This document shows, one piece after another, positions 3,516 through 58,089 of a stretch of 64,000 bases of DNA. The stretch is from Blasia pusilla (Eukaryota), in contig CM114271.1 of the NCBI GenBank assembly GCA_050084515.1, forward strand, positions 41,292,001-41,356,000, read 5' to 3'. Below the pieces are notes generated by a model. That model worked only from the letters and a program-made list of their open reading frames with translations, ran no database searches and had not been told where the DNA came from. The position numbers and the translations under genes were made by a program. Position 1 is the first letter of the stretch. Each line of letters begins with the position of its first letter.

Positions 3516-4299
3516 TTACCCTCTTAGAAGAGTGACTTGGTTGAGTTCTATTCTTAGAGAGTTTCAAGAGTCTGATTTGAAATGGTTATTTGGGGAGACT
3601 TATCGTCTTAGGGGAGTTTTTTCATACTAGTGATAATGCATGATTTTGGTTTATTATTTTCCCAATGAGAGTGGATTACTCTTCTTGGGAGAGAAACTCC
3701 GACAAATTCCATTTTTGAGGAGAGTAGAGAATGTCCGTTAAGTATGGATAGGGATGGAGCATGAGTCGTACCCGATTTTCCTTAATTCGTACCACGTCAA
3801 GGTTCTCTTTGTAGATAGGCACTAGTTTACTCGCTATCTAATTTACCACTTTGGGGAGGCATTTATGAACCTGGTCATGCAATCCCCAACTCCGGTGATT
3901 CTTCTTATTAACACATATACAAGGATATGGGATTGTAGTTTGTATGTCCTTGTATAGCGATTCATGGATGTTAATAGGCCTGCTCAAGTAAGGTTTAACA
4001 CTAGTTGTGCTATTTTTCTTGTGAACAAGGGTAAAACAGTTTACAAGGATTTTATAATTAGCAATTTCAGGATTCTAGGTTATGAAGAAGTGATCACCTC
4101 GGCACTACCATTCGTGATTCTTGTGCTAAGAGAATTGAGAGTATATAATAATTATGTATTGAAAAAAGAGAACTTCTTAGAGAGTTCATCTGCATCAACC
4201 ACATCTACTACAACTAGAAGGTCCACCCTCACTTGAAGAAAATCTTTCGACACGACACCAAAGCCGAGAGAGTCAGGTGACAATCGAGCTTCGGGATTG

Positions 4300-7200
4300 G
4301 AGACGTTGCACCATTGGAAACCACACCCGTTGTGTGCAAGTGTCCAGATAAGGGTGCTAGAGTATTAGATCTCTTTGGAGGGATTAGCATGGGATTGGTT
4401 GCGGTGTTGCAGGTAGGCATACATATCCATCATTAACTTTATGTGGAGAGAGATGAGATCCCACGACGAGTCCCATGGGGTCACGTGCATGGCGAGGTTA
4501 ATCTAGAGATAAGCTTGATCTATTGCCGATATCTGCAATCTGGGATTACCGGCATACATTACCCATCGATATTTTGTTGTTTGGGGCATAGGACCTAGAT
4601 AGAGTTGGTACCATCCATTTGGTGATTTTTGGATGGCCATGTCAAGGTCATTTATTGGCTAGCCAAGGGTTTGGATTGCAGGATCCGAGGTTAGAGATAT
4701 TTTGGGAGACGTTGCGAGTGTTACGATACTTACGGGAGAATCAGACATATTTTTTGGCATACGCTCTAGAGAACGTGCCACTGTTGGGAGATACTCATGC
4801 ACGGGTGATGTTGAGTGTGCTTCAAGTGAGGTGGTGGTTGGGACCTACCGTATTCTTGGATGCGGTGAAAGTTGGATCTCATGCACACCATCCATAATTA
4901 TGGTGGTTAAACTTTCTACCATCAGAGGTACTAAGACGATGAGCTTATGATGGAGTTCAGAGAGCAACACACTTGACAGTGGAAGAGATCTTGAGTCCGG
5001 GTCGTCGGTCTTATGTGGTGACTCGGGATGATATACCATTATTGGCGATAGCCAATAGGGTGGGGAAGTTGAGGGCAGCCTTACCTACTTTGGGGAGCTT
5101 CCCTACATCCCATGCCTTTTGTCAAGGAGGGATTGGCCTGATTTGGGATGTAGAGACATGAGCATTAAAAGAGCCTACTATTGATGAGTGCAACCAAGCC
5201 ATAGGTTTTGCTATAGGTACTACGACGGTGCCAGATGTGACGGAGGCATGTATCGAGGTAGGCGATGGACCTCAACTATCTCACATGGATAGTCAGTCTA
5301 GGTATTTTTGCGTCGAGCGGATGCGAGTGTCATCCACGCCGTCACATCCACAAGTTAGCCCATTGCCTATAGGTTGTGTAGAGCCATTCGCTGGGGGTAA
5401 GAAGAGAAGAGACAAGTACCCATGGACTTCTTGGGACGTCATTTTGAGTAGAGAGTGTGTGCAGAGGTGTGCAGAGTAGCACATGTTCATTTTTCAGATA
5501 TAGATCGATCATGATGTGGGAGGTCAAAGTGGGGTGACTGTAATAAACATGGCTAGGTTTGCTACATAGCAACCAAAGCCGGAGGTTGCATCCTCTTTGA
5601 GTGAGGTCATGATGGAGACTTGGGAGCCTGTAATAGGTCTTGAATTGATAGGAGGAGAGAGATTGTGGATACATAGGTTTATGAGAGGCCATGTGGATTT
5701 TTTGCCTTCAATATGAAAGACTTGGGTACTTTCAAGGGTCCCGGAATACGGATAGATTTGGCTAGTGATACGCCAATCTTTCGTCGACCCTACAATTATT
5801 CAGATATGGAGCGAGCCTTGATTCAGAGTAGGAGTCAGGACTTGTGGGAGGTAACACAAGTGGAGTTATCACATGGGCAGTATGCATCTCCCACAATCAT
5901 GCATGCCGGAAAAGAAGGATATATATGGCAAGTGGACGTGTAATGTACAAGAGTTTCTATTTTATAGTCGTTTTAATAAGTTCGATCCCCAAGAGGATCA
6001 TTGTTTGATGAAAAGAGAGTTAAGAATTACAATTCTGTTGTAATAGTTGTATTACAACATGATGTGTGTGAGTTATATTCAATGTTTTATCAATATCTTC
6101 TGATCTTTCTTAGTACCAAAGGATCTTTCCTCGATTCTCTCTAGTGGAATTGACAGCATGTTTAGGTAGATTTTCCTCTCGACATCAAGAAACCTCACAG
6201 AGATCTCAACACAAAAGCTGGCTTCTCCTACTTTCGAAACTCAATCCGTCTCGGCAGGCTACTCTCTGTCAAACATATTTCCTACAACTCATGTTGATTA
6301 TTTCAGTGATGAGAAAGGTTCGCCTGATTCACTCTTCACTCTGCAGACCCAAAAAGGAGACTCAGACATAAGCATCGCACATCAGAATGAATGAATGATT
6401 GCTTTACTACTCCATCAAGAACGAGAAAGCTTCAAAGTGTATACAAGCTCGAGAGTGTACTACTCTCTTGCTCGGACCATTCCTACAACATAAGGACTTC
6501 GTAAGAGAATGATGATTATGGCTTCTGCCTTGCTTCTTAAATATTCGCTGGAGTGGAAGTGATCCAAAGATTCGAAACGTTCTTGATGAAGCTAGTGTCT
6601 CTTCACTATTTCTAACTACATAGATCTATGGTTCTCTTAGCTTTTCCAACGATCCTTGTGAATCCGCGGTACAAAATTGTCCTAACTACCAATTTGATAC
6701 AAAGGGTCACGCCCTTTCCTAGTCTAACTGTTCTAACTATGTGTCGCTTGAAATCACAGTCCTTCTTAGCTTCGCTTTGCTGGACTTTATGAGGACGAAG
6801 TACTCCATGCTTCGTTCTTACTTCCGGTGCTTCGTGCTTCGTGCAAGAGCGAAGTACTTCTTTCTTCTTTTCTTCGTGATGCTTCGTTATGTAGCAAAGC
6901 ACTTCAAAGATAGAGCTTCGTACATCTTCGTTTAACTTCGTTAAACTTCGTTCTGAGTCTTGAGACTTCGTTATTGTGTTTTCCTCTCCTCTAAGGCAAA
7001 TCCTTGATCTTCCATCTCTTTGCCTTGTCTCAGGAGCTTCGTGATTCACTCATTCTTCATAATAATAAAAAATAATCATAATCAAAATCATAATATACAA
7101 GAGTCTTCGTTGAATAAAAAGATATATTCTTCAAGAGTACAAAATTGTGGGTATCACAGGACGGATAGGCAGATGTGTGGAAATTACCATCCTATCAACC

Positions 7201-7548
7201 CACAGAGGAGGTTAGATCGGTACGCCATACCTATCCCCAAGGAGATCTTTGATGCAATAGGGCATGCAAAGATCTTCGCTACTTTAGATTTTCGTTTTGG
7301 CTATCATCAACTTTCTATTAGGATGGAGGACAGAAAGAAGATAACATTTGGGGGGATAGATCGATTTAGGAGAGATTCTTTATATCACTAGCAGTTCTTA
7401 CCATTTGATTTGAAGAACCCCTCTGCGGAGTTCTAGAAAGTGATGGATAGGATTTTGGTTGGCTTGGATTTTGTATGGTGTTACATAGATGATATTCTTA
7501 TCTTCACTTCCACGGTTGAGAAGCATGAGTGACGCTTAGAGGAGGTGC
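4300..7548 (+). mobile_element. Ty3/Gypsy fragment with C5 DNA methyltransferase domain followed by RT, interrupted by a solo LTR
   Basis: LDLFGGIS at about 4365, WPCQG at about 4634, ENV at 4769; RT start GIRIDLASDTPIFRRPY; RT resumes TDRQMCGNY at 7162 and reaches CYIDDILIF at about 7480. Confidence 0.88.
5939..7158. mobile_element. Solo LTR (1220 bp) of a different LTR family inserted into the RT
   Basis: Starts TGTAAT and ends ATCACA; flanked by a perfect 5-bp TSD GGACG (5934-5938 and 7159-7163); the RT reading GKWT/DRQMCG is continuous once it is removed. Confidence 0.9.
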
Positions 7549-11410: not shown

Positions 11411-14400
11411 GTGGTAGCAATCAAGGAGGGTGTTAGGGTGTTAGATCTCTTTAGAGGGATTAGCATCGGATTGGCTGCAGTATTGCAAGCGGGCATGCGG
11501 GTGCATCAGTACCTTTATGTGGAGAGAGATGAGACCGCACGGCGAGTATCATTACGTCACGTGGCGAGATTGGTCCAGAGGTACCCTGAGTTGATGCCGG
11601 TTTTTGCAGTACGGGGATATCAGCATACACTTTCCGCCGACATCTCATTGGTGGGGGCGCAGGATCTGGATAGAGTTGGCACCATTCATTTGGTGATTGC
11701 TGTATGGCCATGTCAAGGTCATTCATCACCTGGCCGAGGATTTGGATTGCAGGATCCGAGGTCAGGGATGTTTAGGGAGATGCTGCGAGTAGTATGACAC
11801 TTGCAGGAGAGTCACACATGTTCTCCAACGTACATTTTGGAGAACGTGCCGTTGTGGGGAGACACTCATGCAGGTGTGATGACGAATGTGCATCATGTGA
11901 GGTCCTGGTTGGGACCTGTTGTGTTGTTAGATGCAGCGAGAGTTGGATCATGTGCCCATCGTCCACGAATGTGGTGGACGAACCTGATACCATTAGAGGT
12001 ACTCAGTCGAGCATACGATGGAGTCCACGGAGCACCACATCTCACAGTGGATGCTATTTTGGGCTCAAGGCGTCGATCTCAGGTGGTGACATGGGATGAT
12101 AGACCACCGTTGGCCATGGCCAATAGGGTGGGGAAGTTGAGGGCAGCCTTACCTACGTTGGTGAGCTTCCCATGCCTTTCATCAGGAAGGGCCTGGCATG
12201 ATTTGGGATGAGGTGACCAGAGCATTGGAGGAGCCTTCAGCAAATGAGCGCGAGCGCGCCATGGGGGTTTGCTGGCGGTGCCAAGAATGACTGAGGCATC
12301 GCGGAGACAGGTGTTGGGGCAAGCGATGGACCTCAACTATCTCACATGGATAGTCAGCCTAGGTATGGCTTAGCAGAGACAGATGCGAGTGTCATCCATG
12401 CCGTCATGTCCACAAGTTGGACCATTGCCTACAAGATCTGTACAGGCATTGGTTGGGGGCGAGAGGAGGAGAGATGGGCACCCATGGACTTCATGGGACG
12501 TCGTTCGAGCAGAGAGTGCGAAGGCGTCCAGAGTAGCACATGTTCATTTTTTGGATGTGCAGCATGGTATAGGAAGTCAGAGTGGAGTGGTTGTTGCGGA
12601 GGTGGCTAGGGTTGCTACATAGCAACCAAAGTCGGAGGTTGCGTCCTCTCCGAGTGAGGTCACGATGGAGACTTGGGAGCCTATGATAGGTCTCAAGTTG
12701 ATAGGAGGAGAGCGACGGCGAGTTCATAGGTTTCTCAGAGGGCATGTTAGTTGTTTTGTCTTCAGTATGAGAGACTTGGGTACGCTGAAGGGTCCCGGGA
12801 TACAGATTGAGTTGGCTAGTGATACTCCAATCTTTTGTCGACCCTACAAGTATTCCAATATGGGGCAAGCCTTGATTCAGAGCAGGAGTCAGGACTTGTT
12901 GGAGGCAAGGCTTGTGGAGTTATCACATGGGGAGTATGCATCTGCCACAGTCATGCCGGCGAAGAAGGATATGTATGGCAATTGGAAGGATAGGCGAATG
13001 TGTGGAGATTACCGTCCTATCAACCGACAGACGAGGTCAGATCGGTATGCCATGCCTATTCCTGAGGAGATCTTTGATGCGGTAGGGCATGCAAAGATCT
13101 TCAATACTTTAGATCTCCGTGCTCGCTATCATCAGCTTCCTATGAAGTTGAAGGACAGGGAGAAGACAGCATTCTGGGGGATAGATCGGTTCGGGAGAGA
13201 TTGCTTGTATCAATGGTGGTTCTTACCATTTGGGTTGAAGAATGCGCTTGCAGAGTTTCAGATAGTGATTGATAAGATTTTGGTTGGCTTGGATTTTGTA
13301 CGATGTTACATAGATGATATTCTTATCTTCAGTTCCACGTTTGAGGAGCATGAGCGACACCTGGAGGAGGTATTTCGGCGATTGCAGTTACATGGACTGA
13401 AGTTATATCTAGGAAAGTGCAGATTCTTTCAGGAGCAGATTGAGTATTTGGGACACACCATATACCCAAGTAGGTTAGGCGTTCAGCAGACGAAGGTAGA
13501 GGCTATTGCACAGATTCCACGGTATGTCAAGGTTTTTAGTGCGATCGCAAAGTCTTTGACCTTGTTGACGAGACTTGATCATGTTTGGTTGTGGGGAGAT
13601 GATCAGGAGCGAGCATTTTAGGAGTTCAAGGACAGGTTGATGTCCTTACCCATTTTTCTGAGAGACGGTTAGGGTCGCCCATTCCAGTTACATATGGATT
13701 GGAGCATGTTGGGTCTAGGAGCAATGCTTACCTAGAGGGATGAGGAGGAGAGGGAGTTCGTTGTGGCTTACGCAAGCCGATTGAACAACATTGCAGAGGC
13801 GAAGTAGAGTTCCTACAAGCAAGAAAGCTTGGCTACAGTCTGGGCCGTGGCACATTTCAGGTGCTATTTATTTGGCGACCCTTTCACACTTATCACTGAT
13901 CATCAGCCGTTGAGGTGGTTGATGGAGTCTGAAAAGCTTACGGGAAAGCTTGCTAGGTGGGCTCTATTACTACAGGAGTATGAGTTTGAGGTGGTTCATA
14001 GGCCAGGTTGGCTGAACCAGGATGCGGATGGGTTGAGTTGTAACCCATGTCCGAGTCAAAGAGATGACAGAGGAGCTCGATGGCACGGAGAGAGTGATGA
14101 GGAGATGGTGCCCGGTTGGCATGCATCTGCCTATCTTTGTTGGTTGACTATGGCAAGTCAGCCACAGTTGATGACTTCAATGGTGGGGTTGGATGATGAG
14201 TCTTTGGATCTGGAGGTCAGTGAGGAGGCGACAGGTGGTCGTGATATCCATGACGACGTGGAGGTTGTGGAGTTCTTGCGCACTGGGGTACAGCAGTTTG
14301 TGGCCATATGTATGGTATGTGACAAAGTGCGAGCATCCTTCAATGCTCACACTCTGCAGTTGCATCCTTTGCCGATTATGGGTTTAGGTTATCGGTGGAG

Positions 14401-15560
14401 TTTAGACTTTGCGGGACCTTTGCCATTGACGAGGCGTCATCATAGGTACGTGTTGGTCATGGTGAAGCATTTCTCCAAGTGGATAGAGTTGGTGGCACTA
14501 GCGGACAAGGTGAGCGAAGGAATAACTTATGCGTTTCTAGATCGTGTGCTTAGTCACTTTGGTGCACCGGCGGAGGTGTTGACTGACCAGGGTACCGAGT
14601 TCAGGGGAGAGTTTCAGGCCTTGTGTGATCAGGCGCTGATAGATCACCACACCACGTCCAGAGATCATCCTTAGGCGGATGGGTTGGCGGAGAGAGTGGT
14701 ACAGACGGTGAAGAGAAGATTGCGAAAGTATAGCTTGTAGCGGGGACAGTTGAGGGAGTGGGACCTACAGTTGCCATGGTTGGCTATGGGTTATTGCTTT
14801 AGTGTGCAAGCATCCTTGGCGTCATTTTCACCATACTTTTTGCTCTTTGGGAGAGAGCCAAATTTACCTGCAGCGATTCGACGTGACATGGCAGAGGTGT
14901 TAGATCTTGATGATCCAGATGTGTGGGTACAAGCATGTTCTCAGAGGGCGGAGGTTTGTTGTAGAGTTATGCCTATGACCTTTGAGAACTCAGCTATTGC
15001 TCAGCATAGAGATACATTGAGGTACGCGACCATTCGTGGAGGAGGTTATCGTCCAGGGATTAGGAGGTTTCATCCTGAAGATTACGTGTATTTACAGCAG
15101 GCGGCACCCACGACGCTAGATGTCACTGCAGGGCGCACGATCCTACGTGTGCGCGAGGTATTACCGACCGGAGTCCTCATGTTGGAGGAACGGGATGGTA
15201 TGGTTTGGAAGGATCATGTGCACAATTGTGCACCATGTAATCTTTGCAACGTAGATGGGACAGTGGATCCGAGCTTGGCAGTGGTACCTGCAGGCTTGAG
15301 GTGTATGTTGCGCGGATCTGTGAGGGATGCAACCATCATGTTGGTATGTGATGGTTGTTCTCGAGGGTGGCATATGTCATGTCTGACCTTCCCTCTTGAT
15401 GTGGTTCCCACCGGATGATGGATGTGTCCGAGATGTGTATAGGGTAGTAGGTCATGTCAGAGAGATGTGATATTTTCTATCTGGAGTTGGGGGGATCCAA
15501 CTGCGAGCTAGGGGGGCGGTTGTGTAATCTCCATGTATATGTATGAGTTGATTTTTTTAC
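11411..15560 (+). mobile_element. Most complete DNMT-RT-RNaseH-integrase-PHD Ty3/Gypsy copy (internally deleted pseudogene), with PPT
   Basis: DNMT motifs I, IV, VI, VIII, IX and X at 11441-12331; RT ORF 12665-13621 (RMCGDYRPIN, LDLRARYHQ, LPFGLKNA, YIDDILIFS); RNase H and integrase 13829-14674 (TDQGTEF); PHD 15302-15442; PPT at 15506-15519 then TG at 15521. Confidence 0.93.
11423..12380 (+). pseudogene. Retrotransposon-borne DNMT3-like C5 cytosine methyltransferase domain
   Basis: VRVLDLFRGIS (motif I), YLYVE (II), DI, VIAVWPCQGHS (IV, catalytic Cys), ILENV (VI), DAARVGSCAHRPRMWWTNL (VIII; compare DNMT3 AAHRARYFWGNL), ERERAMG (IX), RRQVLGQAMD (X). Confidence 0.9.
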
Positions 15561-15619
15561 ATGTGTGGATCAACCCATGTGTGGGGAAGATCGGTGTTGT
15601 ATGGTGTTGCGGTCTTGCA

Positions 15620-17740
15620 TTGGACCGGCGGTGTTGTTGGCTTGCGTGCACATCATCCACGCTTGTGGTGGACAAACTTGTTGCCTAGGGAGGTTCTACG
15701 TCGAGCATATGATACAGTGCAGCGGGATCCTTGCCTTACAATGGATAGTATCTTGGATACTGGGCAACTTTCTCAGGTGGTGAGGGTTATTGATCGGTCA
15801 CCCAAGGCAAGGGTGAACCGTCTGGGCCAGCCTAGGATGACACTATCCACATTTTTGAGTTTTCCCTTGTCACATGCCTATAGGGAAGGTGGTCCCGGGC
15901 TTGTATGGGATTCTCATGTGCGACAGTTGGTGGAGCCTAATGCTGATGAGAGAGAGCGTGTGATGGGATTTGCTACTGGTGTGATAGCGATTGCTTCCAT
16001 TTCTGAGGCTTCACGACGTCATGTGTTGGGTCAGGCCATGGACCTGAATTGTTTGACTTGGATTTTGAGTCTTGGTATGGCCGAGCAGCGTCGACTTCGG
16101 ACTATGTCTGTGGGTCTTCCACCCCTTGTAATGAGCTCGATGGCTACCATGACAGTAGAGGCATCGGTTGGGGGCGAGGAGAGTAGTATTTTGCATCCTT
16201 GGAGTAAATGGGATGTAATGGCTGGGCATGTGGAGTTGGTTGCTCATGCTGGTGGAGGAGTTATTTGCTCAGATGATGGTGTAGCTAAGGGTGTACCATC
16301 TTGTGAGGGGATTGCGTAGCAGCCAATGGCATCGTCCTCTCCCTCTAGTGTGCTAGTGGAGGAGACTTGGGAGCCATTACTTGGGCCCAAGCTTACGGGA
16401 GGTGAGAAACGACGCTTGACACAGTTCCTACATGCTTATAGGAGTTGTTTTGCCTTTAGCATGAAGGAGTTGGGTGCTCTGGTTGAACCCGGTATACGGA
16501 TTGATTTGGCTAGTGATACGCCAATCTTCCGTCATCCCTACCGATATAGTGATATGGAGAGGGACATGTTTCAAAGTAGGACGTTGGACCTTTTGGAGGC
16601 TAGATTAGTGGAGTTTTCGCATGGAGAGTATGCATCAGCCACTGTCATGCCTCCTAGAAAGGATATGCATGGCAACTACACGGATAGGCGAATGTGTGGA
16701 GATTACCGTCTTATCATTCGGCAAACCAAGGCCGATAGGTATGCCATGCCTTCACCTGAGGAGATCTTTGATGTGGTGGGACAGGCAAAGATTTTCAGTA
16801 CTTTGGATCTTCGGGCAGGATACCATCAATTGCCGATTCAAGAGAGTGACAAGGCCAAGACAGCATTTTGGGGTGTCAACTCTCATGGCAAGGATTGTTT
16901 GTACCAGTGGAAATTCTTATCCTTTGGATTGAAGAATGCACCTGCCGAGTTTCAGAGAGTGATGGACAGAGGCTTCACATACCTCCGATAGTATGTTCGC
17001 CAATCCCTTCATAGTACATACCTCCGATTAGTGCTATGGCAAAGCCTTTGAACCAATTGCTGAAATCAGATCAAGAGTGGCACTGGGAAGATGATCAGGA
17101 GAGAGCTTTTGTGGAGCTCAAGGCCCAATTGGTGGCGGTGCCTATGTTGAGGAGACCTATGAGAGGGCGCCCATTTCAGTTACACACTGATTGGAGTAGG
17201 TTGGGACTTGGAGCGGTGTTGACACAACATGATGATGAGCACATGGAGTTTGTGGTGGCATATGCAAGTCGTTTGAATTATGCAGCGGAGTCGCGCTATA
17301 ATTCATATGAGGGAGAGTGCTTGGCAGTAGTGTGGGTTGTGGCACACTTTAGGTGTTACTTTTTTGGCATACAATTTACCCTTGTTATTGATCACCAGCC
17401 GCTCAAGTGGTTGATGGAGTCTGACAAGCTTACAGGGAAGCTTGCACGGTGGGCTCTTATCTTACAGGAGTATGACTTCCAGGTGGTACATAGACTTGGA
17501 GTTGCCAACCTTGATGATGATGGGTTGAGTAGGAACCCATGTACTAGTGAAGAGAATGCAATTGGGGCTAGATGGCATGGCGAGGTTGATGAGGAGATGG
17601 TGCCAGGTTGGCATGCATCCGCCTTTTTATGTTGGTTAGGGGTGGATATATGTTGTGTAGCGATATGTATGTGCACGACACGGTCTAGAACTCCGCACTC
17701 AATCACTCCATATGTGGCAATGATCAGTTGCCACATGCGG
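15620..17740 (+). mobile_element. Diverged subfamily copy: DNMT C-terminal half, RT, RNase H, then an LTR fragment
   Basis: AHHPRLWWTNL, EPNADERERVMGF and RRHVLGQAMD in ORF 15561-16319; RT ORF 16326-16991 in the same frame; RNase H 17036-17640 (FQLHTDWS, EGECLAVVW). Confidence 0.9.
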
Positions 17741-18278
17741 TTGGACGCCTCTCTTAGACTTTTAACTAATCTCCACTGAAACTCCTATAAACTCTTCAGC
17801 TTGTTGGTTCCCACAACCTGGTAGCTCCAACCATGGATGGGAGTTGGAATGGTTCCTCATTCTAATTAAACCCCTCAATACATCACTCCACTTCGTGTCA
17901 CTCCACTACCACTGCTCGCACTATCCCGTTCTTTTGAACCGTGGAAGAATGCCGTGATGAAAACCTTGTCTCACACGCTCGAGCACTGAGACTCACCAAG
18001 AATCTCCCACACTCCTCACTAGTTCACTAATGCTAATGCTAATATTGTTATGACACACCCGGCCTCACGCACACTTAACACTTGGGCTTACCGTGAGCCT
18101 CTCCAAGAAGCTCACCTAAGCTATTGACACTCTCTCGGGTCAAACACGTGACCACTACTCGGGAAATCTCCATGTTTCCACAAACATGCTATACATGCAA
18201 GGATTCTACACTTGTCACCATCACTACACTTGGCTAACCTAAGCTCTACTCGATACCCAACACCCTCAATGACACTAG

Positions 18279-21201: not shown

Positions 21202-24200
21202 CTAAAGGGGAGGCACCGGACAACCGCAAGATGCATGTTCGGGCATGTTCCTCAAAGGACTATGGACTAACGCTTCCGAGGAACAAGAGGAGTGATCAGC
21301 TGATTTGCACCATGGCTTGTTGCAGTTGCCAGTCGCAAAAGTTTTGCCTTGAGGTTTGGCGAGGTGTGAATCTCCAGAGAATGCAATTACTACATCCGAG
21401 GGAGAACTTCCGCTCCCTTGATGTTGAGAGCTACTCGTTGCAGAGCAGGATGCTGGATTTCTCCGTACTAATCGCGATGAACTCCCAGAACTGCCCATCT
21501 CGCAGCAAGTCATCGACGAAGCACTCTGCGCAGAGCCGCACAAATGACCGATTGATGGCTCGAGAGTGCTCTTGAAGCCATGGTTCATATCCTGGGTACT
21601 GTGTTCTTGTTCATGATCAGATCTGTTGGCTTCTCCTGTACATTTCTTGCTCGAGCAGCACTTTTGCTCAGAGTTGGTCCCAGGGCAACTTTCATCGGCG
21701 TTTGGAGAATTTCCTACACTGATGAGGCGGTTGCACTTGGTAGTATCTGGAATGATTCCTGAAGTACATTTCTTGCTGACCTCTAGTGAAACTGAGCAAC
21801 ACTTCGTCTCTGGGCCTGCTTTTGAGCTGGGTGCCGGACAACACTTTTTGCCTGATATGCCCAAGTCTAAACCAGATTTTGAGCTGCAAGTAGGTCCCGA
21901 ACGACATTTCATCTCGGGAACTTTTGAATCTGGGGAACGCTCGGTCTCAAAACGAGGTTTGGATCCAGAACAACACTTTTTTTCAGTAACCTTGGAATCC
22001 GAGCAAAGTCTGCTCTCCACATCACTCGTTGAGAGGCAGGTGGTTGTTTTGCAACACTTTTTCTCAGGATTCCTAGGATCTGAGTGCTGCATCGTCTCTA
22101 AACTGGGTCTTAGGCAGCATTGAGTGCTCAGTCCCAGTTCTGATCCGGCGACCATTTTTCGGGGGACTTTAAACGAGCTTCCAATGTCTTGGTTTGCTAC
22201 TGTGCAACACTGTTTGCCTCGACATGACTCTGATCGTTCGTACTTTTCCCTCAAATCATGGCCATAGCTATTCTGTCGAAGCGGCCAGCAGGTAACCCTC
22301 ACTCTGTGATGATCGTGGTCTTCTCCATCATGCTTGTGGTCACTACTGCCATATTTTCCTGTCTCTTGGTCATTCTGACCGAGTTCGTGTTGATGAGTTT
22401 GCTGGCAATGATTATGACTATGACTGTGATGCGCATGTTGTTGGTGTTTCTTCGATTCGAATTTAGGCAAAACAACACCCACTTTCCTGTTGAGCAGACG
22501 CATACTGTTGAATATCACCACCAAGCACGTTCCAACGTCGGCCAGCACTGCCGCCCAAAGGGATGGGTATCCTGCTGCAGCAATAATGATGATGGCGATT
22601 TTCGTGAAGAAGGAGAAGGACACATTTTGTATTATCTTTCTTCTGCAATCCCTTCCCAATTCGATTGCCACAACCAGCTTCCGCAGATCGTTTGTCATTA
22701 GGGCTATGTCCGCTGTTTCCATAGCAACTGCGGACCCTGCAACGCCCATTGCAAGTCCAATATCGGCTACGGCCAAAGCTGGTGCATCGTTGATGCCATC
22801 TCCCACCATTGCTGTAACTCCGGTCGGCTTGAGATCCTTTACGAGATTAACCTTATCTTCGGGTAGGAGCTCAGCATGAACTTCTATGTCACCAAGCTGG
22901 AAACATATCACCAGAATGCCCGGTTAGGACTGAAAATACCATGCTACGACAGATTTTGCAACCTAAGGTTATTTGGTGAACGTGAGTAACTTGGTTATAA
23001 AGGAGGACTAGGCGCCCATACCTTGTTATGGACAGCTGTAGCCGCAAGTTCACTGTCACCCGTGAGCATGACAACACGCACCCCCATATTCTATCAACAA
23101 CAAATAGAACAATCAGAAATTTCTTTGAAGGAATGCGAAATCTTGCGCAGGACAAGGAGGCTTCATAATCACTGAACCTTAACAAATCCATGTGGACTTG
23201 ACTTCGCTCTTCTAATCACACATTATAGGGACCGTCAACTTACCTTAAGACTTGACACTGCCTCGGCTGCTTCAGGTCGAACTGAATCAGCTACTGCAAA
23301 AATGCCTATCGGTCGCCCGTCGACAGCAACCCAGCCAACGGTGGCGCCCTGACCACTCCACTGGTCCGAGATTCCAACGTTTATATCTACGATCCGAGAA
23401 GATACTGTGGTAAGTTTTCTAAATTGTGGGAGATCATCTCATCTGTTTGTAAGTTCCAATACCCACTGGTAAGTAGATATATACACTAGCCTCGACATCT
23501 GTTTACAAGTTACAGACACATTTGCCGGACCAGAGAACCCATGGATATGACAAATTACCACACTGAGTCCTTGTCTGTTCGTGAACGATGCTTTATCAAA
23601 CGAGAGAGCAAACTTTCAGCAATTCCACATCCTTTTTCTACTCGAGACAGAATGGCGTACCTTGAACACCTTTCAGGCGTGCAGCCAAACGAGCATTTCC
23701 TATCTCCACCTTTTGATCATCAACTACTGCAGATACTCCCTCTCCTGGTATGATCTCAAAATCTGTGGTATCGCCGTATGGTTCCACCCCATGAAGGCGT
23801 GCATATGAAACAAGTGCTGGTGCTAATGGGTGGCTAGATTTGTTTTCGACACACGCAATCCTGGAGACGTCACACATCAAAAGAGTCTTAGACAGTGATG
23901 TGTTTGATGTACACGTACACATTTGCTTCTCCCCTTAACCAGCGTCACTTTGGAAAGGTAGGAAACCAGGAACAGGGCATCATGGTTGGAGATGGAGTCA
24001 TCCATAATCCAATCATGTTCCGTTCAGGAGAAAATTCACAGACCTGGAAAAGCTGATAGTTAAATTTAAGTGGTAGATTACCGCATTATGCCCGACTTTC
24101 GTCACTTCTGGTCTCCGGCATCGTTAGACAAGTATAACTTTTCTTTAGTATGATATGTTTCATTCTCGAATTACATGAAACATACCAGTGTAAAATTTGT

Positions 24201-36875: not shown

Positions 36876-38939
36876 CATATCTTTGGTGGACCAGATTGGG
36901 GCATAAACTAACCTTGTTTTTCCAGGCTTGGAAAAACAAGTAGACCTAAGAAGACCACTTCAAACATGCCTCCATCACTCTCCACGTGAGCCCAATTTTT
37001 TTCACGTTGCTATTCTAAACCAGCTATAGAGTAAGCCATCTAGAGTGGGTCTTATTGTTGGAGGACCATCTGCATATAATTTTATCAGTACAAAAAATTC
37101 AAAAAAATGATAGGTGCTAATAAAGATTCTGACTACAGTATCAATAGACTACATTGCCCTTGAGGGTTTTACTTCTCAATAGATGAGAAAATTATGGACT
37201 GTTGATGTAGGACTCTCACCCTCACCATGTTGAGTAGGAGGGCCCTTGATGCATGAAGGCATGAAATATCCCATCCGATCGATACAGATCCATCAGATGG
37301 GATTTTCCACAACAAAACACTTGAAATCCGCTCAAAGTAAACTCTGACCATTTAGCGTAGCCGAAGACTTTCATGACAGTCTTGGATATTGAGAAAGTGG
37401 AGGGTTCCAAAAAACTCAGAGGCCACGATTCACTTAGATATGTTGGCTTATGAATGGGTACATGGAGTCTATAGGAGTTTGAATCAAACGGGTTACGAAC
37501 AACTCCAACCGAAGATTAGAGTCTATGAGAGCACGCACACCACACCAAAGGAATAGCAGGAAAAAAATTGGAAAAGGTTGTAGTGAAGATATTTTCAGGA
37601 AAATATTTGCAGTGAAAAGACATTCAAGCAACCCGTTGGTTTCTGAAGGTTTGCAACAACATAAAAGCCTGACTCCAATTTCTGACGGGTCATATCTAAA
37701 ATAACATCAAACCATGAGCGTGAAGAGAATTTGGTGCAAAACATTGATTTCTTTATTTAAAACCGTTTGCAAATCGGTTATTTACACTTGATTTCCTGAA
37801 CAAGAGAATCTAGTCTATGATCTCATCAGCCTCATCATCTACAAAAATGTTCCTAACTCTTGCGGGTTCCTCTACAAGTGACTTCTCCTGGGCTAGTCGG
37901 TGGCTTTTTCAGTAAGATTTTAGATTGGAATTGAGAAGAAAGGAGGATCCAAGAGCCTTGTACCCCTAGAAATCATGTATCGGTCCAATGTAATACAAGA
38001 AAAGTCCCAACACTTGCCCCGACATGTGATTTTGAAGGTTCTGCAAAGGTAAACCCATCGATATCAATATTTGCTCCTCCATGAGAACCATCATATGTCA
38101 ACTCTAAAATGCTTGAAATCCAAGACACCTATACTCACTTGTCATCATCGGAAGCTCCTCCATAATCACCGGTGGCCTTGCCCTTCTAGTTTTGGGATCA
38201 CCTTTGGTAGTGACGATGGCGTCACAACCACTAGCTCTAATACTGGTTCATTCATCCGTGGAGGCAACTTGTAAACGCCCATCAACGTCCAAATCTGACA
38301 ACTTGCAAGGCATAATGAGTGTGGAAAAACTTGCAAGATGTGACAAATCAAAAGGTAAGAAAAAAAATAATGAAATGAAAAGATAGAAAATCATGTAGAT
38401 ATGCATGCAACATGTTGAAATCCAACAAGTTGCATGACATGACAAGTGCAGAAAGAGTTGTAAGACATGATTCATCAGAGGAAAAAAAAATGAGAGGAAA
38501 AGAAAGACAATCATCTAAACATGCAATGTGTCAAAATCAAACAAGTTCCAAGACATGTGCATGACAAGTGCATAAATAGTTCTAAGACATGACAAATGAG
38601 TGGTAAGAGAAGAAAATGAAGGATAAAAGAGGAAAAGAGAGATTAACATTCAGACATGTAATTTGTCTGAATCCGATAGGTTGCAAGACATCACATCTTC
38701 AAAAAGCCATGAAACAATTTGTAAAACAAGATGATAGACATACAAATGAAGAAATGATAGGAAACAGACAAGTTCCATTCAGATATGAAACTTGTCGGAA
38801 TCAAACAGGTCGAAATCTGACAAGTAGCTAGTAGGCAGTGTCAAAAAGCATACTTGGTAGAGGGAAAAATCAATTTGCAACGTGTTAGAATCTGACAACT
38901 CCAAGAAAACACATGACCATCACAACCGTGAACCAAGTT

Positions 38940-40200
38940 GTTGAAGTGGGCTTATGATGGAGTTCAAAGACCATCGCTACATACATTGGAGGTGATCTTG
39001 GATGGAGGGCCACGATCTCAGACTGTTACTTGTGATGATATACCATTGTTGGTAGTGGCCAATTGGTCAGGCTACTAGAGGGCAATATGCGTTGCCTACA
39101 TTGGTGAGTTTTTCCGTCAGCTCATGCTTTTCTTCAAGGAGAACAAGGCATACTATGGGATGAGCGGGAAAATATATTGGTAGAGCCCAATGCCGAGGAG
39201 CGAGAGCAAGTTTTGGGATTCTCTACAAATATAATCGTAGAGGCATCACATAAATAGGTGTTGGGTTAGGCTTTGGACATAAATTATCGTACTTGGGTGA
39301 TTAATCTTGGTTTGGCTAAGCAAGGATAAATGCAAGAAGTATTTGTGACATTATGTCCATTTTGTAGCTCAATATCTATCGAAATGGATGAGACAAGAGT
39401 AGGGGGCATGATGGTGATGGAGAGGCATCCATGGACTTTATGGGACATGTTACAAGAGCAAAGAGAGATGGGAGTTCATTTTTTTGATGCGAGACATAGC
39501 AGAGTGCCTAGAGAGTTGGTGCTTGAGTTGGGAGAGTATGTTGTTACTACTCTAGAGGTTACTAGTTTGCTACCACCACTCTTCTATGCTATATATAGAG
39601 ATCATCAATGAGACTTAGAGCCCGATCCCATGGACATGCTTTGAGGTCACGAAGACCCTCATTTTTGCGTCCAAAACAAATCATTTACGAGTGGATAATG
39701 TAACAAAATTCCGAGTCCCTAATAACTACTTCTAGTCATTACTAGGTCAAGGTTGCTCAACATTGGGCCATTTTTATACCCAAAATTTTTGAGCGTAGAA
39801 AAATTGGCGACCCCCCTATGGTCTCCAACTTGGTGCGCATGGGATTTGGCCCATAATTGGGAGTTACTGATTCGTCCTAGATTGACAAGAGCCGAGAGGA
39901 GACAAGTGTTGCAATTCTTGTAGAGATGAGGGACTATTTTGCATAGAGAATCCATGATTTGGATACGTTGAAGGATCCAAGTATTTGGATCGAGTCGGAT
40001 AGTGATATATCCATCTTTCAAAAACCCTACAAGTATTTTGGCATGGAGTGAGCCTTGATTTAGAGCAAGAGTCAATATTTGGTTGACGTCAAATTGGTGG
40101 AGAGATTGTTTGGAGAGTATGCATCCACCATAATTATGCTAACAAAGAAGGACATGCATGGCCATTCGACCGATAGGCAAATGTGTGGGGATTACCGTCC
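38940..40200 (+). mobile_element. Degraded Gypsy fragment: DNMT motifs IX-X, linker and start of RT
   Basis: EPNAEEREQVLGF at about 39183, HPWTLWD linker, EYASTIIMLTKKDMHGHSTDRQMCGDYRP at 40115-40200. Confidence 0.8.
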
Positions 40201-56012: not shown

Positions 56013-56454
56013 GATTTTCTGATCAGGCCAATCGTGTGCGATATTTCTAGGGAAAAGTGATACACTTCAATAAAAATGTTTGAGATTTCTAGGGCAGGGA
56101 GTGAAGACTTCGTGATCAGTCTCATTTTGAAAGTTTCAGGTCGATCATAGTGTCGTGCTAGCTCTCTCTATGTCTATGGGGAGTGACTTGGTAAGATTTC
56201 TTGAAAAGAGTTGAGGTGGGCAATATGGGTTTAGGGTTTAGGCGAGGAGGGGTGTGTCGTGAAAATGATTAAAAAATAAAACATACCACTCTCCAAAAAC
56301 AGTAAGTGCCCAAAGTCACATACCTTGCCAATTCAAATTCAACATAAGTTAGGATAAAAAATCATACTATTTTTTTGAACTGAAAAGTTAATGCTAGCCT
56401 AAATTTTTTTTTCCAAAAGAAGCAATCCAATCATACGAATATAGAGACTTCAAA

Positions 56455-57885
56455 TCCTGAACCCTAAAAATCGTCTCCCATTTCTTCTTTGACTATGGAA
56501 GCGATAATGGCAGATCTAAACCGTTGAAAATTGCAACGCATTTAATTCAAACACATGTTCCAAGTTTCAACACCATCCAATGGTTGGAACAAAACATACC
56601 TCAATGTCAACATGAAAATGAAACAAATACTTGAAACATTCCTACTCGGAGCCATCCTCTTCCGTCTTGACCCCTCATTTTCTTCCCTCCCCCTCAACCA
56701 GGGTTCCAAAAATCATGTAAATTTTCCCGAAGACGCACTCCAAGCCCAGTAACACAAGGGAAAAATCAAAACTTAAAATGATCATCCGCACATGAAAATA
56801 AACATCGTAAACCCTAGAAATGGTCTCTTAATTTTTATTTTAGTATAGAAGCCAATAAAGCAGATCTGAACCGTTGAAGTTTGCAAGAGATTTAATTCAA
56901 AGGCATGTGCCACGTTTCAACACCATCCAATGGTTGGGACAAAAGATACCTCAATATGAGCATGAAAATGAAACAAACACTTGAAACATTCCTACTCGAA
57001 GCCATCCTCTTTCGTCTTGACCCATTGTTTTCTTCCCTCCCCTCAACCAGGGTTCCAAAAATCATGAAACTTTTTCCAAAGAGGAAATCCAAGCCCAAGA
57101 ACACAAGGGAAAAATCAAAACTTAAAATGACCATCCACACATGAAAATAAAAATCGTAGACCCTAAAAATGGTCTCTTAATTTTTATTTAAGTATAGAAG
57201 CCAATAGAGCAGATCTAAATCGTTGAAATTTGCAAGAGATTTAATTCAAAGGCATGTGCCACGTTTCAACACCATCCAATGGTTGGGACAAAAGATACCA
57301 CAATATGAACATGAAAATGAAACAAACACTTGAAACATTCCTACTCGGAGCCATCCTCTTCTGTCTTGACCCCTCATTTTCTTCCCTTCCCCTCAACCAG
57401 GGTTCCAAAAATCATGTAATTTTTCCCGAAGACGCACTCCAAGCCCAGTAACACAAGGGAAAAATCAAAACTTAAAATGACCATCCGCACATGAAAATAA
57501 AAATCGTAAACCCTAGAAATGGTCTCTTAATTTTTATTTTAGTATAGAAGCCAATAAAGCAGATCTGAACCGTTGAAGTTTGCAAGAGATTTAATTCAAA
57601 GGCATGTGCCACGTTTCAACACCATCAAATGGTTGGGACAAAAGATACCTCAATATGAACATGAAATTGAAACAAACACTTGAAACATTCCTACTCGAAG
57701 CCATCCTCTCTCGTCTTGACCCCTCGTTTTCTTCCTTACCCCTCAACCAGGGTTCAAAAAATCATAAAGTTTTTTCCCAAAAAGGCACTCCAAGCCCAAG
57801 AACACAAGAGAAAAATCAAAACTTAAAATGACCACCCACACATGAAAATAAAAACCGTAAACCCTAAATTTGGTCTCCTATTTTT
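56455..57885. repeat. Subterminal tandem repeat, about 4 units of 349-350 bp, arranged A-B-A-B
   Basis: Equivalent positions at 56555, 56905, 57254 and 57604. Confidence 0.95.
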
Positions 57886-58089
57886 TTATCTGCCCCTTAC
57901 TTCCTTGAACATCTTCCATGAACAAACAAATAATTAATAATGCCCTTTTATTATTATAAGTGTTACCCTATATTAAAAAATACCCTTAAGTTCTTCCACA
58001 AAACTTTATAAGTCTTCCTGAAATCGAATTAAAAACCCTATACTTTGTAAATGACGTGATAGGTCTCTTCCGTGGAAGTGAGACCCCAG

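Follow-up and report, generated by a model that had tools for sequence, protein, structure and literature searches.

Readthrough of a UAG stop codon is linked in plant viruses to an established motif, UAG-CAR-YYA, and in yeast to the motif UAG-CAR-NBA (PMC3159437; also PMC2194720). Signals of the first kind, termed type I, are found in the replicase of tobacco mosaic virus (TMV) and also in the coat-protein extensions of benyviruses and pomoviruses (PMC3159437). Plant long terminal repeat (LTR) retrotransposons are usually described as elements with a single open reading frame (ORF), unable to use translational recoding (PMC5580714, citing Gao et al. 2003). Some streptophyte retrotransposons are mentioned as having embedded members of the DNA methyltransferase (DNMT) family DNMT3 (PMC12344493), and in KnitGypsy-Dnmt3 of Klebsormidium nitens the DNMT lies within the Pol polyprotein ORF (de Mendoza et al. 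2018, PMC5890265). In this study, we analyse a stretch of 64,000 nucleotides (nt) from Blasia pusilla (GenBank assembly GCA_050084515.1, contig CM114271.1, positions 41,292,001 to 41,356,000, forward strand), hereafter the window, in which three decayed copies of a DNMT-carrying, Ty3/gypsy-like retrotransposon bear a TAG between the DNMT and the reverse transcriptase (RT). This in-frame stop is almost certainly a conserved feature of the family, and it likely serves as a programmed readthrough site.

The stop site in the window and in its relatives

Judged by its domains, the element is Ty3/gypsy-like, with the order Gag, protease (PR) and DNMT upstream of the stop and RT, RNase H (RH), integrase (IN) and PHD finger downstream of it; the methyltransferase is of the Dnmt-type C5 class. 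Gypsy-type RT_RNaseH and Integrase_H2C2 matches in the order PR, RT, RNase H, integrase were obtained with Pfam in the window, in the metagenome locus L047 and in the proteins P0137, P0129 and P0161. A C5 cytosine methyltransferase inside the coding region is recognised in ORF1 of L047 (PF00145, 51 bits) and in many relatives. In the window itself, RVT_1, RT_RNaseH, rve and a C-terminal PHD finger were found downstream of the stop, and upstream only a sub-threshold DNA_methylase. A protein search with window copy D, its TAG read as X, matched 126 proteins of similar length and 116 longer ones. Those with a named source come from Marchantia polymorpha, Riccia sorocarpa, Calypogeia fissa, several Sphagnum species and Closterium, and many further matches stem from metagenomes or assemblies. 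A CCHC knuckle, the aspartic protease and the DNMT domain are all present in full ORF1 proteins (1150-1440 aa), and full ORF2 proteins (1033-1145 aa, one cluster with n=226) begin just past the stop site and contain RT, RNase H, integrase and PHD finger. The more distant P0129 is a single polyprotein of 2358 aa with all ORF1 and ORF2 domains in the same order.

The original prediction placed a UAG-CAR-YYA readthrough signal between DNMT and RT in three copies. On the + strand, TAG CAA CCA, TAGCAACCA, is indeed present at 5567-5575 (copy B) and at 12620-12628 (copy C), and TAG CAG CCA, TAGCAGCCA, at 16317-16325 (copy D), where ATG comes next. The three sites are homologous: in each, A or T, stop, Q and P lie between the C-terminal end of the DNMT and ETWEP...CFAFS, the conserved beginning of the RT region. 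The weight of the three nine-mers derives from this homology of position and not from their frequency. Taken by itself, the pattern TAGCARYYA matches the window 6 times versus 3.89 expected, with at least 6 in 18 of 100 shuffles, and frequency was rejected as evidence since this is not significant. The window copies are old, being 67-83% identical in DNA by self-comparison, and they are truncated and nested among fragments. At this divergence the linker on either side of the stop is barely alignable between subfamilies and the nine-mer is kept, as had been claimed.

The shared frame of the upstream ORF and the RT, also part of the original prediction, was recovered in copies C and D. In copy C, the TAG at 12620-12622, proposed as the point of readthrough from the DNMT ORF into the RT ORF, is followed by CAA CCA and is the sole stop from about 12383 up to the stop at 13619-13621. 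The DNMT part of ORF1 in this copy (11426-12619, + strand) has a few decay stops and aligns by tblastn with residues 879-1261 of P0128, a Marchantia ORF1, at 58% identity, and also with P0014 of Calypogeia; its PF00145 match is weak (18.3 bits, under the 22-bit cut-off). Copy C lacks its 5' part, and neither Gag nor protease lies upstream on the + strand. Its ORF2 (12623-15436, + strand) continues in the frame of the DNMT part as one tblastn high-scoring segment pair with residues 17-1030 of P0137 (55% identity, frame 2) and holds RVT_1, RT_RNaseH, rve and PHD by Pfam. In copy D, positions 15552-16991 on the + strand form one frame of 255 aa and 223 aa on either side of the TAG at 16317, the sole stop. 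Here the C-terminal half of the DNMT ORF, identified by its open frame and by homology searches, is open for 255 codons (15552-16316), and the RT and RNase H region (16320-17780) shares the DNMT frame for its first 223 codons, up to a frame change at about 17000. Copy B is decayed: its DNMT part (4293-5566, + strand, by tblastn) has many stops, and its RT region (5576-7547, + strand) starts at 5686-5922, is interrupted and resumes at 7161-7547; the local frame is kept at the stop site. Copy E (38935-40195, + strand), a strongly decayed piece of DNMT and RT from a more distant subfamily, has a TAG at 39796 that is out of frame with both flanks; it was considered as a fourth data point and rejected as too decayed to score at the junction.

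The original prediction cautioned that the mutation of CAG to TAG is a common form of decay here and proposed to count stops at the site against those at other Gln codons. This count was run on metagenome relatives. A metagenome scan with a DNMT alignment matched 600 stretches; 330 of them proved to be relatives, and the 80 best served as loci. The census used the largest subfamily, A, with 57 copies aligned to a reference stretch of 373 codons, 49 of them covering the site; most of these copies are themselves decayed. A stop stands at the site in 48 of the 49 (37 TAG, 11 TAA), the remaining copy has TAC, and neither CAG nor CAA occurs in any. At the 12 Gln-majority codons of the same stretch, stops are found in 2/49 to 15/56 copies (4-27%), and at CGA and TGG codons of the same alignment in 0/57 to 9/39. 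The stop of subfamily A is followed by CAA in 47 of 49 copies and then by CCC, again in 47 of 49.

An intact copy with CAG at this position had been named as a finding that would speak against a functional stop; in the relatives, this check and the codon count both came out for the prediction. Locus L047, an intact member of a second subfamily, has TAG CAG TTA between two long in-frame ORFs. Its ORF1, open to the 5' end of the locus, spans at least 1350 codons, with the protease at 689-744 and the DNMT from 921; at least 890 same-frame codons with RT, RNase H and integrase follow the stop (running off the 3' end), and across these at least 2240 codons the TAG is the sole stop. The same TAG CAG TTA is present in locus L050. 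In a third subfamily, represented by L046 with a DNMT about 49% identical to the scan query, ORF1 ends in ...SPSIQ, and the stop context is TAG CAA CCA as in the window. At the DNA level, the same-site stop is thus seen in five diverged subfamilies, as TAG CAA CCA in copies B and C and L046, TAG CAG CCA in copy D, TAG CAA CCC in subfamily A and TAG CAG TTA in L047 and L050.

Protein databases point to the same boundary. Of the database proteins, 64 align over at least 150 DNMT residues; 34 of these end 0-75 residues past the DNMT domain, 13 are cut elsewhere, 7 are fused to a downstream RT and 5 have the DNMT after the RT; 5 eukaryotic gene models were set aside. The 34 proteins that end at the site come, among other sources, from Marchantia, Calypogeia, Sphagnum and metagenomes, and their C-terminal motifs are specific to subfamilies (...PKVFA, ...PEVVA, ...SPGIQ and, in Marchantia, ...PPLEQVS). 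Several annotated gene models from Marchantia, Riccia and Sphagnum fallax (P0002, P0005, P0121-P0124) join DNMT and RT, with a gap exactly over the conserved stop. In the models P0121, P0123 and P0124, which fuse the two domains at 55-64% identity, the alignment gap lies precisely there, as an intron predicted so as to avoid the stop would produce it. These fused models are probably prediction artefacts in which annotation software spliced the stop out. Because of the census, the intact L047, the third subfamily L046, the protein ends and the gaps in the gene models, decay is excluded as the origin of the stop, which is ancestral.

Sequence context, transcripts and expression of ORF2

The claim of a UAG-CAR-YYA signal stood in part. 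The stop and the CAR codon directly 3' of it are conserved, with CAA or CAG in all five subfamilies seen at the DNA level. At the second downstream codon, CCA (window copies, L046) and TTA (L047, L050) fit YYA, and the CCC of subfamily A does not, so that in the sequences compared the conserved core is TAG-CAR-YYN and the strict CAR-YYA is not family-wide. A small hairpin occurs in copies B and C only, where the G of the TAG together with CAACC pairs with GGUUGC 9 nt downstream (5569-5589 and 12622-12642); this GCAACC/GGUUGC hairpin was absent from the other subfamilies folded. When DNA of the subfamilies was aligned with MAFFT, subfamily B came out a few columns off, and the comparison was anchored on the stop instead. 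DNMT and RT have a common frame in window copies C and D, in both loci of subfamily B and in 28 of the 40 subfamily-A loci with both anchors, the other 12 having decay frameshifts.

To look at transcripts, raw reads from two RNA runs, together with contigs from two DNA runs, all under the species label of the window, were mapped to 15552-16991 at 80% likeness or more. The RNA runs contributed 1084 and 968 mapped reads, at a depth of about 50-190. Most of these reads are 90-99% alike and therefore derive mainly from related copies and not from copy D. In nearly all of them the first mate lies on the - strand, which by the usual convention for stranded libraries indicates + sense RNA. Depth is continuous across 16317: it is 89 and 49 for the bin that ends at 16319 and 75 and 48 for the one after it. 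Within 15552-16991, no RNA joint spanning or skipping the stop was present in the two runs, and read starts or ends did not pile up. No variant within 16317-16325 was among the best 40 of 275 variant positions, which leaves room for a minority variant at the stop, and position 16311 is near-fixed for A>G (75/76 and 47/47 RNA reads). One DNA loose-end consensus reads TAG CGA CCA, with the stop kept. Sense transcripts cross the stop without splice joints.

ORF2 is intact and under purifying selection. In L047, its first Met is codon 117, which lies inside the RT domain, so that 116 codons precede any ATG; judged from this sequence, ORF2 cannot start at an AUG near its beginning. Between L047 and L050, these 116 codons differ by 17 synonymous and 8 non-synonymous changes, a non-synonymous to synonymous ratio (pN/pS) of 0.14, and the last 100 codons of ORF1 give 0.57 in the same two sequences. 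We propose that the TAG is the natural end of ORF1, encoding Gag with its CCHC knuckle, the aspartic protease and the Dnmt-type C5 methyltransferase, and that ORF2, with RT, RNase H, integrase and PHD finger, follows directly in the same frame. Most ribosomes would stop at the UAG and release Gag-PR-DNMT, and a minority would decode it through a near-cognate tRNA, aided by the 3' CAR-YYN, and make a Gag-PR-DNMT-RT-RH-IN-PHD fusion. The ratio of structural to enzymatic products would then be set by readthrough, as in the gag-pol of murine leukaemia virus (MuLV). An ORF1 composed of CCHC knuckle, protease and DNMT would fit the earlier proposal that the DNMT is made at Gag-like abundance and RT-RH-IN by readthrough.

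Relatives without the conserved stop provide a contrast. A fused clade, about 38% identical to the query, lacks the stop between DNMT and RT (loci L062-L078; proteins P0017, P0018, P0022, P0126, P0129, P0130, P0135 and P0047 of Closterium). The linkers of 7 of its loci are fully open, and those of the remaining loci have scattered stops at differing places. Two loci of this clade, L066 and L071, have a common stop about 20 codons downstream of the homologous position, with MGN-stop-L in place of the MGNQL of other copies; in contrast to the fixed site, this stop resembles ordinary Gln-to-stop decay. The residue opposite the stop is Gln in P0129 and Glu in P0130 (BLASTP; the alignment is weak in the linker). 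A quick maximum-likelihood tree was made for the DNMT domain from 47 rows, with support only from the Shimodaira-Hasegawa-like approximate likelihood ratio test (SH-aLRT); its stop-bearing rows are divided among two starred clades (16 and 18 rows) and P0159, all of them inside a single starred clade. The sequences compared are compatible with one origin of the stop from a fused ancestor but do not demonstrate it.

Several observations weigh against an old, programmed readthrough signal. The CAA CCC of subfamily A (47/49) lacks the final A of both CAR-YYA and CAR-NBA, and no conserved RNA structure was found 3' of the stop in seven folds of 130 nt, whose z values range from -0.1 to -2.75 and which differ by copy. 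The census covers metagenome relatives, the genome of the window being represented by three decayed copies and the mapped reads. The pN/pS of 0.14 derives from two sequences, and the RNA variant evidence covers the best-supported 40 of 275 positions, with 235 others outside it. In subfamily A (45/48) and in copy D, an ATG stands two codons past the stop, where termination and reinitiation may occur instead. With regard to the single origin, the fused pair P0129/P0130 lies on the DNMT tree in an unresolved polytomy with stop-bearing rows; the stop label needs two changes on this tree, of which the starred branches force one.

Four other explanations were considered. The TAG could be a shared decay mutation of methylated CAG, without function. 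C-to-T decay is common in the window copies, and other Gln codons are stopped in up to 27% of copies; such decay would have to account for a stop in 48/49 copies at this site versus at most 15/56 elsewhere with CAG or CAA in none, for its presence in five diverged subfamilies and three named bryophyte genera, and for an intact L047 that has this stop only in at least 2240 codons, and we give it scarcely any credence. Alternatively, short-intron splicing or editing could remove the stop from the mRNA and yield a fused polyprotein. Splicing was weighed as a possible bypass for Tca2 (PMC2194720), and the Marchantia, Riccia and Sphagnum gene models skip the stop region, but these models are software predictions. 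Moreover, RNA depth is kept over the site without a joint, and T>C at 16317 is absent among the 40 best-supported variants, which makes removal of the stop from the mRNA very improbable.

The two remaining explanations accept the TAG as a true terminator. In one, ORF1 ends there normally and ORF2 is made independently, either from a subgenomic RNA or by a new initiation event, which could be reinitiation at an AUG close by, initiation at a non-AUG codon or internal initiation. The ATG two codons on in subfamily A and copy D agrees with this, and gene callers place the start of ORF2 at that ATG or at a GTG. However, the subfamilies do not share this ATG: the first Met comes about 15 codons after the stop in copies B and C, and L047 has none for 116 codons that are under purifying selection. 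Reinitiation after an ORF as long as ORF1, with more than 1200 codons, is inefficient; RNA 5' ends are not piled up near the stop, and independent initiation assigns no role to the zero-frame relation or to the conserved CAR codon. We regard it as unlikely. In the other, stop-bearing elements are non-autonomous for ORF2 and obtain RT-RH-IN in trans from fused relatives. A fused, stop-less clade is present in the same metagenomes, yet it is only about 38% identical, and the ORF2 of stop-bearing elements is intact (1033-1145 aa, clusters of up to 226) and under purifying selection; supply in trans has a slim chance at best. Readthrough is favoured over independent initiation because of the shared frame, the missing start codon in L047, the selection on ORF2, the CAR-YYN context and the fact that no structure is needed. 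Programmed, type-I-like readthrough therefore likely separates Gag-PR-DNMT from RT-RH-IN-PHD; that readthrough takes place, its efficiency and the residue inserted are inferred.

Neighbouring features and related architectures

Directly upstream of the truncated copy C, an inverted Gag-protease fragment of a related ORF1 lies on the - strand at 10440-8037 (P0128 residues 208-853). The integrase of the element ends in a PHD finger and not in the chromodomain of chromoviruses (14741-15418 and 1584-2207 in the window; P0137 residues 986-1030), which suggests targeting via the reading of histone tails. A second architecture, with the DNMT after RT-RH-IN, was observed in P0142, P0146, P0148, P0151, P0152, P0154, P0157 and P0169 and includes a protein of the green alga Cymbomonas. 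These rows group separately on the DNMT tree with weak support (SH-aLRT 68), which suggests a separate capture or a rearrangement.

Two further features lie outside the transposon copies. Beside the transposon nest, an open frame of 573 codons on the - strand (21202-22923) belongs to a host gene and encodes the C-terminal portion of a heavy-metal P-type ATPase of the HMA2/3/4 type; its best named relatives are from ferns (53-69% identity). By self-comparison, units that are 84-92% identical are repeated in tandem at 56452-57886, with a period of about 350 bases.

Comparison with known recoding systems

We consider it fairly probable that a leaky UAG of the tobamovirus type has been kept, possibly since before the split of mosses and liverworts, in a DNMT-carrying Ty3/gypsy family, with the methyltransferase made in Gag-like excess and RT-RH-IN-PHD made by readthrough. 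This would be a plant recoding signal at the PR-DNMT/RT boundary that arose from a fused polyprotein by a single sense-to-stop change. If true, the family would be a clear exception to the single-ORF, recoding-free view of plant LTR retrotransposons and would offer a natural readthrough cassette for non-seed plants. The DNMT upstream of the stop would then be made in Gag amounts, far above the reverse transcriptase, which argues for an abundant product that acts, for example, on host or element chromatin, and not for a minor Pol accessory. For annotation, the finding is a warning, as several bryophyte gene models appear to be spliced around the stop.

Among the systems compared, tobamovirus type I signals share with this element the UAG, the CAA or CAG that follows, a pyrimidine-pyrimidine codon after that, the absence of a conserved 3' structure and a plant host (PMC3159437). 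As in type I, the in-frame UAG stands between two coding regions, the downstream one conserved as protein (pN/pS 0.14 over 116 codons). The lack of a common 3' structure is compatible with type I, since type I signals need none. The differences are that a retrotransposon and not an RNA virus is concerned here, that the second downstream codon is CCA, UUA or CCC with a final A that is not universal, and that the upstream A-rich context is not conserved.

The gag-pol UAG of MuLV, a type III signal, resembles the present site in being an in-frame UAG before the RT ORF of a retroelement, with an abundant structural ORF upstream and a role in stoichiometry (PMC3159437, PMC2194720). MuLV, however, needs UAG-G, a purine-rich spacer of 8 nt and a pseudoknot, whereas here the next base is C in all copies and the 130-nt folds differ among themselves (z -0.1 to -2.75), pseudoknots being outside the folding model; in addition, the present element has protease and DNMT upstream of the stop. 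KnitGypsy-Dnmt3 is likewise a Gypsy-type retrotransposon of a streptophyte with a Dnmt3-like methyltransferase in its coding region; it differs (PMC5890265) in that here the DNMT ends ORF1 upstream of a conserved stop. A DNMT within one Pol polyprotein ORF is found only in the fused clade (P0129, 2358 aa) and not in the stop-bearing lineage. No description of readthrough in DNMT-bearing retrotransposons was found in the literature searched, which covered text of PMC5890265, PMC11982613, PMC12344493, PMC3159437, PMC2194720 and PMC5580714, the figures and supplements of the first lying outside that search.

SIRE1, a Ty1/copia LTR retrotransposon of soybean, also has ORFs separated by an in-frame stop (PMC2194720). 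It belongs to another superfamily, and the boundary is that of pol and env instead of DNMT and RT. Stop-codon suppression in SIRE1 between pol and the env-like ORF, with its context, was reportedly described by Havecker and Voytas in 2003. The mechanism proposed here is thus of a known kind, namely type I readthrough used as MuLV uses its gag UAG, with SIRE1 as the plant precedent for an in-frame stop. What appears to be new is its place, after the protease and a captured DNMT and before the RT, its host family of DNMT-bearing Ty3/gypsy elements of bryophytes, and its breadth over liverworts, Sphagnum, the species of the window and metagenomes.

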